Below, piece by piece: positions 10,112 to 26,451 of a stretch of 36,733 bases of DNA. Source of the DNA: a virus. Taxonomy: Duplodnaviria > Caudoviricetes. Where the stretch lies: IMG/VR virus record IMGVR_UViG_3300028585_000520, positions 1 through 36,733 of that record. One strand, written 5' to 3'. Each line of letters begins with the position of its first letter. The stretch's first letter is position 1. Made by a program: the position numbers and the translations under genes. The notes under the pieces were generated by a model. The model was not told the DNA's origin. It searched no databases and saw only the letters and a list, made by a program, of their open reading frames with translations.

Positions 10112-11161
10112 TTAATAAGCCGCTACTGTCATATATGATTCAAGGTGTTTCGCATCAATAGTATAAGCTGCATCCATGAAGTTGGTTTTTAGCGTTCTAT
10201 CGTAAAATACATCCAACTTAGACAAGTCCTCAACGCTAAGTGTACCTAATGGAATATTGGCCTTAGTTGTATATATCGCCCTGTGTGGTAAGTTCCATTT
10301 AGTGCCGTTGTTTTGGTATGCTTTGATATATCTATCCCAATCGTAACGTACTTTTATTTCGACACCATCAAATAGAATTTTTGGCCTGCCATTTTCGACA
10401 ACCTCCATATATCCTGAACCAAGATTCTTACCTCTTAGGTAAGCGCTGTAGTTGTCAGCAATAGATCTTGTAACCAAAATAAAGTCCTCACCTGATGTAA
10501 TCAGACGTTCATCTGCAATCGCTTTAATTTCGCTTAGTATCCTGTAAGCGCCATCCTCGTCAAGCGCTTGGCCTGCATATGTTGCACCTGCATTTTCCTC
10601 GATGGTTACACGTTTAACAGCTGCATCACCATAGATTTGTTTAAACAATCCATTGAAAGAATTGAAATAACCTAAGTCAGTTCCTGGTGTGAAATTACCA
10701 GCTGGTGCAACAGCTGCGTTCTTATCGTTAAACCATACCTTTCTGTGGATGTTATCAATCATTGCTCTCTCAACAGCAGCTATGATTACACCGAACTCCT
10801 CAGAACCTACACGGTCATAAAAGTCAGGATTGATGTTTTTAGACTTTTTAAAGATTTTTAACAATGCCGGCATATCAGTCGAACAGTGTTTAAGTCTAAA
10901 ATCTTCTAGCACTGGAGTCCAGAACTTTTCAGAAAATGAAAACCCTTCTGCTTCATTAGGTGTACACCCAACTGATTCTTTACCAAGTAGACCTATTAGG
11001 CCAGCGAAAACAATCTGTTTGGTTACATCAATACCAGTCTCAATGTCGTGGAATTCGTTAAGGTCACTTTCATTAAATACCCTTTCGAAAATCACATCGC
11101 TTACCGCACTAACTTCTTCAGGATTTAAAGTAAGATCCTCTGCATTTATCAATTTTGCCAT
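10112..11161 (-). CDS. Major capsid protein
   Basis: 349 aa directly after the protease/scaffold; size and position. Confidence 0.8.
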   Translation of the reverse strand: MAKLINAEDLTLNPEEVSAVSDVIFERVFNESDLNEFHDIETGIDVTKQIVFAGLIGLLGKESVGCTPNEAEGFSFSEKFWTPVLEDFRLKHCSTDMPALLKIFKKSKNINPDFYDRVGSEEFGVIIAAVERAMIDNIHRKVWFNDKNAAVAPAGNFTPGTDLGYFNSFNGLFKQIYGDAAVKRVTIEENAGATYAGQALDEDGAYRILSEIKAIADERLITSGEDFILVTRSIADNYSAYLRGKNLGSGYMEVVENGRPKILFDGVEIKVRYDWDRYIKAYQNNGTKWNLPHRAIYTTKANIPLGTLSVEDLSKLDVFYDRTLKTNFMDAAYTIDAKHLESYMTVAAY

Positions 11162-23054: not shown

Positions 23055-23663
23055 TTAAATCTGAACGTCTTTCTTTGGATATGGTTTTGACATTGATTTT
23101 AACTTTTGCGCCATACTCTTGTGCATGGGGTATACATACTTAATCTTTGCCTTACCAATTATTACTTCTGCATCCGGGTCCAGGTTCTCTTTAACCCAAT
23201 CAATCCCGGATTTACCATATTTCTTATTGATGCTCCTGCGATGGGTAAGCTTACCGTTTAACATGATGCCGCGCTCATTGGCATACTCCCCAATGTATAG
23301 GAAGTTCGTAGCCTGGTATATCGTGCCGATGTGTTCCTGATTGCGATCGGCATAGCTTACTACAACCTTAACAGCCGGCGCATCTTTTTTAAGTTGCCTT
23401 AATGCCATGGCCAACACCTGTGATGTCGTTTGTTGCTTACCATTGAGAGCCATTCTAACCAGTTCGATTACCTGTCCCTGAACCAATCCAAATTCTTTTG
23501 CGATTGATGGGTTAGCCCCATTGGAGAACAAAGCTACCCCACACCATTCATCAGCGTCATTGAATACAGAATAACCCAAACGTATTTGCGGCACAGACTT
23601 CGAATAGTGGAAGTAGTGGCACGCATGCCTGATGGCTTTACCGGATGCTTTCTCTAATCTCAT
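23055..23663 (-). CDS. mom: Mom-family adenine-modifying (methylcarbamoylation) GNAT-like protein
   Basis: FHYSKSVP, ELVRMAL, VVSYADRNQEHIGTIYQATNF motifs characteristic of the Mu Mom family. Confidence 0.85.
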   Translation of the reverse strand: MRLEKASGKAIRHACHYFHYSKSVPQIRLGYSVFNDADEWCGVALFSNGANPSIAKEFGLVQGQVIELVRMALNGKQQTTSQVLAMALRQLKKDAPAVKVVVSYADRNQEHIGTIYQATNFLYIGEYANERGIMLNGKLTHRRSINKKYGKSGIDWVKENLDPDAEVIIGKAKIKYVYPMHKSMAQKLKSMSKPYPKKDVQI

Positions 23664-24760: not shown

Positions 24761-24804
24761 CAAATATAGGCAATTTTAGTGATATTTTATGATAGCTACC
24801 TGTC
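24761..24804 (-). promoter_or_regulatory. Candidate late promoter with upstream GACA-N6-TATC site
   Basis: TATATTTG at 24761-68 (minus); no TTG at the -33 position; motif at 24791-24804. Confidence 0.55.
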
Positions 24805-24880
24805 TGTAACAAAATTTATTTAGAAGATAATAATCTTATATGGCTTAGATTTTATTACTTTGCAAAAAAGATTTTTCACA

Positions 24881-25168
24881 ATGACATTTAATGAACAAAA
24901 GATTGAAGCGGGGAGTTTAACTCTTAGGGATATCCAAAATTTAGTCGATGGCAATACTAGCAAAGCAATGGCACTGGGTGTTGAGTTGTCTTGGTATGCT
25001 ACTGGGAGGCACGTCACTGGACGAATAAGAAAAAACGGTGTGATAATTTGGAGTGTAACAGCATCTACTATTAGCTTTCCCTTTAACCTTTGCAGGATGT
25101 ATGAATTGATAAATCAGCGATTAGATTTTTTAATTGCTGAGAGTGTATCTAAGGCTAATCATAAATAA
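24881..25168 (+). CDS. Hypothetical moron protein (95 aa)
   Basis: ATG 24881 after a TTACTTTG -7-like box; ends before a bidirectional terminator. Confidence 0.55.
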   Translation: MTFNEQKIEAGSLTLRDIQNLVDGNTSKAMALGVELSWYATGRHVTGRIRKNGVIIWSVTASTISFPFNLCRMYELINQRLDFLIAESVSKANHK

Positions 25169-25192: not shown

Positions 25193-25222
25193 AAAAAAGG
25201 CCTACATACTGCAGGCCTTTTT
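25193..25222. terminator. Bidirectional intrinsic terminator
   Basis: AAAAAAGGCCTACA-TAC-TGCAGGCCTTTTT between convergent genes. Confidence 0.85.
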
Positions 25223-25223
25223 G

Positions 25224-25631
25224 TTATTCTTCAATCTTGGATTCTTTTTCCTCCGACAACTTTACAAAGTTAATTGATGGAAGTATTACGGGTTCGAATC
25301 CTGATTGTAATGTGACATTTGAAATGAAAGCCCTTAAATAGGGAAATCCTATAGCTGGTGCATTTATCTTAGGAAAAGCAGAAAGCTTGAAAGCTTCACT
25401 AATTACTTCATCCGTTTCAAAGTTAAATACTGCTTCTAAATTAAGATCAAATAATTTATCTTTTACTTCAATACTAAATGCTACTCCAAATGCTTTATCA
25501 TTATCATCATCTTCTTCAGCAAAATAATTTGCAGATTCAAGATTAAAATTGTTTTCCTCTCTCTTATTTTCTTCCTTTAAAAGAGCGAATGTCATATTTA
25601 CTATTTTCCAATCAGTTAATTGAATCTTCAT
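25224..25631 (-). CDS. SecB-like chaperone (CmdC-like)
   Basis: NAPAIGFPYLRAFISNVTLQSGFEPVILPSINF is the SecB-family signature. Confidence 0.9.
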   Translation of the reverse strand: MKIQLTDWKIVNMTFALLKEENKREENNFNLESANYFAEEDDDNDKAFGVAFSIEVKDKLFDLNLEAVFNFETDEVISEAFKLSAFPKINAPAIGFPYLRAFISNVTLQSGFEPVILPSINFVKLSEEKESKIEE

Positions 25632-25632
25632 T

Positions 25633-25860
25633 TTATGCTGCTATTGAATAATCACAGTAGTCTTTTCCTTCATCATATACTCCTGAATTTGATTTGGAAT
25701 TATAGAAAGATTTTACAACTGAGTCAAATTTTTGATTTTCTATTTCTATGTTTACTTCACAGAAATCATACTTATTGACCGTTATATTCAATAATTCCTC
25801 TGCCGAAATATTATCGAAATAATTGTCAATCCTCTTTTTTAATTCTTTTGTAAGTTTCAT
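25633..25860 (-). CDS. Putative antitoxin with chaperone-addiction-like C-terminal tail
   Basis: 75 aa between toxin and SecB-like gene; helical N-terminus, polar/aromatic tail ending YSIAA; ATGA overlap with the toxin. Confidence 0.7.
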   Translation of the reverse strand: MKLTKELKKRIDNYFDNISAEELLNITVNKYDFCEVNIEIENQKFDSVVKSFYNSKSNSGVYDEGKDYCDYSIAA

Positions 25861-26420
25861 ATAACACTTCCGTTTGTAATAATCTTAGTAGACTTTATAT
25901 TCTTAGCAGGGTCAAAAACCGTGCAAATTGTGCAATTATTAGTGCGCAAATTTAAACCTTTAATCTTCTCTTTTGTAAATTTTATATAAAAATTACCTTT
26001 TGCAACCTCTATATCTACTATATTTTCCCTCCTTGCAAAGTTCAAAAATTGACCATCTTGATATTTAACCGTCTTTCTTATTGACCCCATCTTTTTGATA
26101 TACCGATCTATAATATAATCAAAGACATCTAACCCATCCTCGGTAGTCAAGTCCAAAAAATTATCGTCATGCACTTCAATATGTGATAGAAGAACACAAT
26201 AATTCCGATACTTATTCCTTTTAAATTTATTATCCCATGCTCTTGAAATAGCCCATTTTACAGCCAAGTCCTCAAGCTTACTGCTAATACCCTTTATAAA
26301 GAAATAAACACCATCCCCTAACCATTCCTCATCACCAGTTGAAAGATCATATTTCGAACTCTGTATTGATTGCGCAGACTCAAGACTGGTACCGTGATAA
26401 CCTTCTAGATTAATAATCAT
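25857..26420 (-). CDS. ADP-ribosyltransferase-fold toxin (CmdT-like)
   Basis: N-terminal GYHGT plus WLGDGVYFF, and FLDL; first gene of the toxin-antitoxin-SecB triad. Confidence 0.8.
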   Translation of the reverse strand: MIINLEGYHGTSLESAQSIQSSKYDLSTGDEEWLGDGVYFFIKGISSKLEDLAVKWAISRAWDNKFKRNKYRNYCVLLSHIEVHDDNFLDLTTEDGLDVFDYIIDRYIKKMGSIRKTVKYQDGQFLNFARRENIVDIEVAKGNFYIKFTKEKIKGLNLRTNNCTICTVFDPAKNIKSTKIITNGSVI

Positions 26421-26443
26421 TAAATTTAACGATTAAGTTTCTC

Positions 26444-26451
26444 CAAATGTA
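26444..26451 (-). promoter_or_regulatory. -7 promoter box for the TAC operon
   Basis: TACATTTG on the minus strand, 23 nt upstream of the toxin ATG. Confidence 0.6.

Follow-up and report, generated by a model that had tools for sequence, protein, structure and literature searches.

Three small genes in a Bacteroidota-type provirus stand apart in base composition from everything around them, and the question they raise is what a prophage might gain by carrying them. A reading of the sequence alone suggested that they encode an anti-phage toxin-antitoxin-chaperone system resembling CmdTAC of Escherichia coli. The window analyzed here (the whole stretch of DNA, 36,733 nucleotides) is an entire IMG/VR provirus record with an estimated completeness of 93%. 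We suggest herein that the cassette is a prophage-borne CmdTAC operon, likely defending the lysogen by abortive infection, with a probability of roughly 0.78. That it is a new member of the CmdTAC family, in the clade of the E. coli O112ab:H26 system, is nearly certain. Its mechanism is presumably the known one, not a new one, and the family has already been described as widespread.

The cassette and its prophage setting

All three genes lie on the minus strand: the toxin gene T (25857..26420, 187 aa, with the motifs GYHGT and WLGDGVYFF), the antitoxin gene A (25633..25860, 75 aa) and the chaperone gene C (25224..25631, 135 aa). The ORF positions give a 4-nt overlap between T and A and a 1-nt gap between A and C, so the tight coupling noticed earlier holds. 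The cassette is also AT-richer, as claimed: its GC content of 30.7% is below that of all 663 equal-length segments elsewhere in the stretch (39.2 ± 1.8%, minimum 33.9%).

A promoter and a terminator of its own were likewise recovered, both as predictions. A Bacteroidota-type -7 box, TACATTTG, is located at 26444..26451 (minus strand), 31 nt before the T start; its TAnnTTTG pattern is what we take to be the Bacteroidota -7 box. This motif is frequent, with 43 matches in the 36,733-nt stretch when both strands are counted. Of 47 related loci, 31 contain it in the 110-nt upstream region on the sense strand and 4 on the antisense strand, which lifts the promoter call above chance. Upstream of the cassette's -7 box, an exact -33 TTTG box was not seen. 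On the 3' side of C, a bidirectional intrinsic-terminator-like hairpin with A/U tracts is predicted at 25193..25222 (both strands), with 13 pairs, a U-tract and -17.6 kcal/mol on the cassette strand; it is absent from the list of a generic terminator scan. A 102-aa ORF at 24860-25168 (plus strand) converges on the cassette, with the terminator in common, and had no family or phage match in Pfam, NCBIfam, PADLOC or phage-family searches. This ORF is possibly a second accessory gene and is left out of the toxin-antitoxin-chaperone system. A second TAnnTTTG box at 24768 (minus strand), upstream of the resolvase gene and downstream of the cassette's terminator, is a candidate late-operon promoter.

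The gene complement of the provirus includes an integrase, a portal, a Clp-type head protease and a putative capsid gene (10112-11161), together with terminase, Mom, a resolvase, PcfJ/PcfK, a clamp and a helicase. The cassette indeed stands between the early and late modules, with the PcfJ/PcfK/clamp/helicase genes on one side and the resolvase/Mom/terminase genes on the other. The Mom-family DNA-modification gene (23055-23663, minus strand; PF25680, E 7.5e-40) lies just upstream of the terminase genes and likely has an anti-restriction function. A Bacteroidota host, as proposed, fits because the nearest relatives of the terminase are from Cellulophaga phage phi10:1 (50%) and Flavobacterium phage 11b (40%), and because none of the 36 provirus genes has a Shine-Dalgarno (SD)-like motif while 23 of the 36 have an A at position -3. 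Ribosomes of Bacteroidota are described as ignoring SD sites (PMC7797042).

The claim that the cassette is a moron inserted into this prophage stood in part. The low GC content, the cassette's own signals and its patchy distribution all support the label, but no empty allele came to light: a scan with PcfJ found no close relative of the prophage lacking the cassette, and T, A or C lay within 7 kb of the resolvase in 0 of 80 resolvase loci; in the nearest of these, L166 (72% identity of the resolvase), the upstream genes are different ones. Insertion is thus inferred, not seen as an empty site.

Toxin, antitoxin and chaperone

A reference for comparison came from a viral scan, which returned a locus (L100) whose second gene encodes 121 aa ending in AA; Mets et al. 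used a '120AA121' CmdA construct (bioRxiv 10.1101/2024.02.24.581848). The DNA of this locus is annotated in two E. coli genomes as WP_097333619.1, WP_053886482.1 and WP_053886483.1. All three accessions equal those in the methods of Mets et al., so L100 is the tested CmdTAC of E. coli O112ab:H26.

T had no match in Pfam, NCBIfam or PADLOC, and a PDB sequence search returned nothing significant; it was matched by PHROG 14664, a family of unknown function, and its profile search returned 1,592 clusters at E <=1e-3. An AF2 model built from 98 sequences reached a pLDDT of 93. With this model, the best Foldseek matches were PARP catalytic domains (E 4e-4), and VIA-align returned ART/RES-fold proteins at Z 7-9 (top Z 8.8, rmsd 4.2, 134 aligned). 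The latter scores are middling, yet the top rows are nearly all of the ART/RES fold. A solved CmdT structure appeared in neither fold list, which does not exclude one. T is accordingly predicted to fold as an H-Y-type ADP-ribosyltransferase (ART-H), in agreement with the ART fold earlier proposed for 25857-26420.

Conservation points to the same family. Y39, which aligns with Y41 of O112ab:H26 CmdT, is invariant (98/98 and 132/132 homologues), and H9 is kept in 97 of 98. At least 90% conservation across 132 more distant T sequences is seen for H9, G10, T11, W33, G35, G37, Y39, W56, D90 and N162. Position 152 of T is a Lys where 96 of 98 kin have Arg. The triad of CmdT is given as HY-[E,D,Q] in PMC11618068. 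The classical third column, which may not hold the residue meant by that source, is occupied in T by I165, not by E, D or Q, and this was counted against the CmdTAC reading. Since the tested, active O112ab:H26 CmdT has a Val in this column, the missing E/D/Q is common to T and an active mRNA ART. Q fills the column in 16 of 30 aligned toxin rows. In a midpoint-rooted tree of 30 hand-picked rows, a 97/94 split places T together with the tested CmdT on a side of 14 rows marked by N-C-[TR]-[IV], and the other 16 rows are those with Q. T is 31% identical to the tested CmdT (WP_097333619.1) over residues 7-187 (E 2e-23) and shares with it the H, Y, LDL and N-C-[TR]-[IV] motifs. T did not match the PADLOC PD-T4-9_A toxin models, and this too was counted against the reading. 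Those models were matched weakly by 44 of 98 close kin (best E 8.8e-6), and they under-cover the CmdT family, because the tested O112ab:H26 toxin itself scores only E 0.007.

The SecB signature seen earlier in the 135-aa protein is borne out by a match of C to Pfam PF02556 (SecB) that passes the curated cut-off (E 1.8e-9). C also matches PADLOC PD-T4-9_C (E 1.8e-34) and is 34% identical to the tested O112ab:H26 CmdC (E 6e-22). Judged from these alignments, T and C are direct homologues of the O112ab:H26 CmdT and CmdC, in line with the original CmdTAC-like assignment. C was also tried as a housekeeping SecB and rejected, scoring 41 bits where the NCBIfam SecB equivalog cut-off is 143, and 27 where it is 102.8.

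The antitoxin, like T, had no match in Pfam, NCBIfam or PADLOC. Its AF2 model has helices at 5-17 and 20-29, the remainder being coil with falling pLDDT; the tail contains aromatic residues at 45, 52, 53, 62, 68 and 71, and the sequence ends in SIAA. The second gene after T was collected from 57 loci, and 42 were kept for alignment; near-duplicates, frameshifted rows, the four loci lacking a chaperone gene and a number of distant rows were left out. An Ala-Ala end is found in 37 of the 42 curated and 42 of the 57 uncurated genes, and the aligned antitoxins share an N-terminal MKL...ID.YF..I..EEL pattern. The profile of A matched a profile of CmdA plus 15 kin over 34 N-terminal columns (probability 78.6, E 1.7e-5), and its comparison with the single tested CmdA sequence was not significant (E 0.2). 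CmdA is described as having a helix pair, an unstructured tail and a C-terminal Ala-Ala degron (PMC11618068; bioRxiv 10.1101/2024.02.24.581848). By sequence and model, A is CmdA-like, with Ala-Ala as a putative ClpXP degron, so the earlier view that the antitoxin could not be assigned no longer holds. Nor is it notably short: 75 aa is an ordinary length, the PADLOC PD-T4-9_B model being 77 positions long. This model was matched by 0 of the 42 antitoxins, which was counted against the CmdTAC reading. The authors of PMC11618068 and PMC9519451 regard the antitoxin as too variable for calling CmdTAC. The rule given in PMC9519451 is that a second ORF lies downstream together with a third gene that is SecB-like, and the cassette has ORF A after T and the SecB-like C third.

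Relatives and distribution

With a threshold of at least 36% toxin identity to T, 48 close loci (L001-L048) were collected, mostly from Bacteroidota. The T-A-C order, with a SecB-like gene no more than 1.2 kb downstream, is present in 41 of them; three are broken by contig ends, and four have no adjacent chaperone gene and were counted against the CmdTAC reading. These four consist of T and a short antitoxin, in Capnocytophaga (L021:5953-6752, L028:5992-6794 and L029:5992-6794) and a Prevotellaceae MAG (L042:694-1415), and their antitoxins end in VIA, LAS or QIA. The genomes of L021, L028 and L042, which may be incomplete, contain neither a PD-T4-9_C match nor a Pfam SecB match that exceeds the cut-off, and that of L029 has one chaperone match elsewhere. 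Such pairs may be chaperone-independent or decaying CmdTA pairs.

Flanking genes (138 proteins, 39 of 48 loci) differ between loci, and the majority have housekeeping functions. Most Bacteroidota copies checked adjoin housekeeping genes, not prophages or evident defence islands, and this was again counted against the reading. In L001 and L031, packaging genes follow the cassette immediately, much as the resolvase-terminase block follows it in this prophage. Matches were obtained in 5 of 401 sampled Bacteroidota genomes, the only strong one being in the centre genome. The low GC content and the many unrelated neighbourhoods are consistent with a mobile accessory cassette. Bacteroidota-type cassettes with 40-59% toxin identity also occur under other phylum labels (L022, Psychrobacter; L003/L004, Acidobacteriota MAGs; L043, Fibrobacter), reflecting transfer or mis-binning. 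In a Kaistella MAG, a Macro-domain gene, possibly an ADP-ribose hydrolase, is convergent with and directly after the T-A-C cassette (L006:7340-8326, minus strand).

Other arrangements were seen farther afield. T-A-C cassettes of enterobacterial prophages (L083, L090, L103-L114, L119), one of them inserted in a baseplate gene cluster (L083), have antitoxins of about 80 aa with aromatic ends, such as SFAF or SLVF, not Ala-Ala, and a different degron or protease is possible there. In Chloroflexota, mostly Dehalococcoidia (L057-L081), distant Q-type toxin relatives are followed by a gene of ~330-350 aa without a Pfam family and an IrrE/Peptidase_M78 gene of ~255 aa. Two of these loci have a gene of ~830 aa instead; the product of the one that was scanned, L068, is a DEAD helicase carrying an MrfA Zn-binding domain. 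The Chloroflexota loci seem to be separate, non-TAC systems in which the same ART is used. Cyanobacterial toxin kin (L054, L055, L061) are followed by one gene of ~135 aa, beginning with an antitoxin-like helix pair, and have no adjacent secB.

Mechanism, rival readings and known systems

The steps of the mechanism are drawn from two E. coli CmdTACs (PMC11618068; bioRxiv 10.1101/2024.02.24.581848). The SecB-like tetramer of C would bind the antitoxin tail, and the antitoxin helices would fold, hold and block the toxin. When another phage invades, one of its nascent proteins (of capsid or tail type) would outcompete that tail, and host ClpXP would then break down the antitoxin, starting at Ala-Ala. 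Once released, the toxin would modify single-stranded mRNA with ADP-ribose and bring translation to a halt. By analogy, mRNA is probably the toxin target and an anti-phage role is equally probable, and a phage structural protein is rather likely to be the trigger. Both systems of Mets et al. are prophage-borne (bioRxiv 10.1101/2024.02.24.581848), and the puzzle of self-triggering on induction is therefore not peculiar to this prophage. The sequence-only reading treated a lack of toxicity of the toxin alone as refuting, which is the wrong test: ECOR22 CmdT alone is reported to be non-toxic and to need CmdA to fold, the toxic combination being T plus A without C (PMC11618068).

At 31% identity, the substrate specificity of CmdT need not carry over to T, and the same system with the same anti-phage role might act on another RNA dinucleotide, structured RNA, single-stranded DNA or protein, or deplete NAD+. 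The NAD+-degrading or protein-targeting RES toxins NatT, MbcT and ParT match the model at Z 7.3-8.1, level with PARP and DT matches, and the host's disregard of SD sites (PMC7797042), mirrored in the 36 provirus genes, points the same way. Another substrate is nonetheless unlikely, as two divergent tested CmdTs are both reported to modify mRNA (bioRxiv 10.1101/2024.02.24.581848; PMC11618068), and T shares its motifs and clade with one of them. A Bacteroidota variant, lacking an acidic third residue and acting in an SD-blind host through another translation block, is a tentative reading to which we give a modest chance; the block might be elongation stalling or work through a different RNA motif (the A-rich start context, for instance), and the members in Capnocytophaga and the Prevotellaceae MAG would have shed the SecB sensor and be triggered without a chaperone.

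Housekeeping neighbours of many relatives, and the rarity of any match (5 of 401 sampled genomes), could suggest instead a selfish addiction or stress module that stabilizes the prophage or insertion site and has no real anti-phage trigger; an unstable antitoxin would presumably give post-segregational killing. This is improbable, given that both tested CmdTACs, MqsRAC and HigBAC are reported to defend against phage (PMC11618068; bioRxiv 10.1101/2024.02.24.581848; PMC9519451) and that 41 of 48 loci have retained the chaperone, although a plain toxin-antitoxin pair could presumably give addiction alone. K152 might be taken as a sign of an inactive or silent passenger, a reading that hardly deserves credence when the three frames are intact and coupled and H9, Y39, D90, N162, the Ala-Ala end and the predicted promoter box and terminator are all present. 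The CmdTAC operon with a defensive role thus remains the preferred reading.

A literature search found no study of CmdTAC in Bacteroidota; the taxonomy in Extended Data Fig. 1 of PMC11618068 may list such homologues. With this cassette, a defence family already characterised reaches into Bacteroidota prophages. The clade escapes the toxin and antitoxin models of PADLOC 2.0, and among the proteins missed is the antitoxin of one tested member. The cassette's main value is as a test case for SD-independent translation arrest by mRNA ADP-ribosylation. Vassallo et al. left undecided whether CmdT blocks translation via SD modification or during elongation (PMC11618068), and SD-blind hosts such as Flavobacterium johnsoniae would separate these two. 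It is also a pointer to chaperone-less T-A pairs.

Among known systems, HigBAC and MqsRAC resemble the cassette in having a SecB-like chaperone third and an antitoxin with an aromatic disordered tail; they differ in that their toxins are RNases, not ARTs, and their antitoxins derive from canonical antitoxins, whereas A has no such domain. The ECOR22 CmdTAC (PD-T4-9) is alike by description in architecture, ART-H fold, and CmdA build and degron, and C matches PD-T4-9_C as above. In this comparison by description, it differs in that T lies outside the PD-T4-9_A models and has no E, D or Q in the classical column where HY-[E,D,Q] is described. To our knowledge, T4 does not infect this prophage's host. 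T4 Gp23 is reported as the ECOR22 trigger (PMC11618068). ECOR22 CmdT (RCP66309-11) was sought indirectly: PDLC04068 matched 0 of 400 Gammaproteobacteria genomes at E 1e-5, with one further genome unscored, and a second viral scan for this type returned mostly loci already collected. The O112ab:H26 CmdTAC agrees with the cassette in gene order, coupling, prophage location, a hydrophobic third triad column (Val there, Ile here), and an antitoxin that is helical in its N-terminal part and ends in Ala-Ala. It differs in its antitoxin of 121 aa with a tail of ~85 aa (75 aa and about 40-45 aa here), in its site beside the integrase rather than at the early/late boundary, and in its host, the phylum here not using SD sites.
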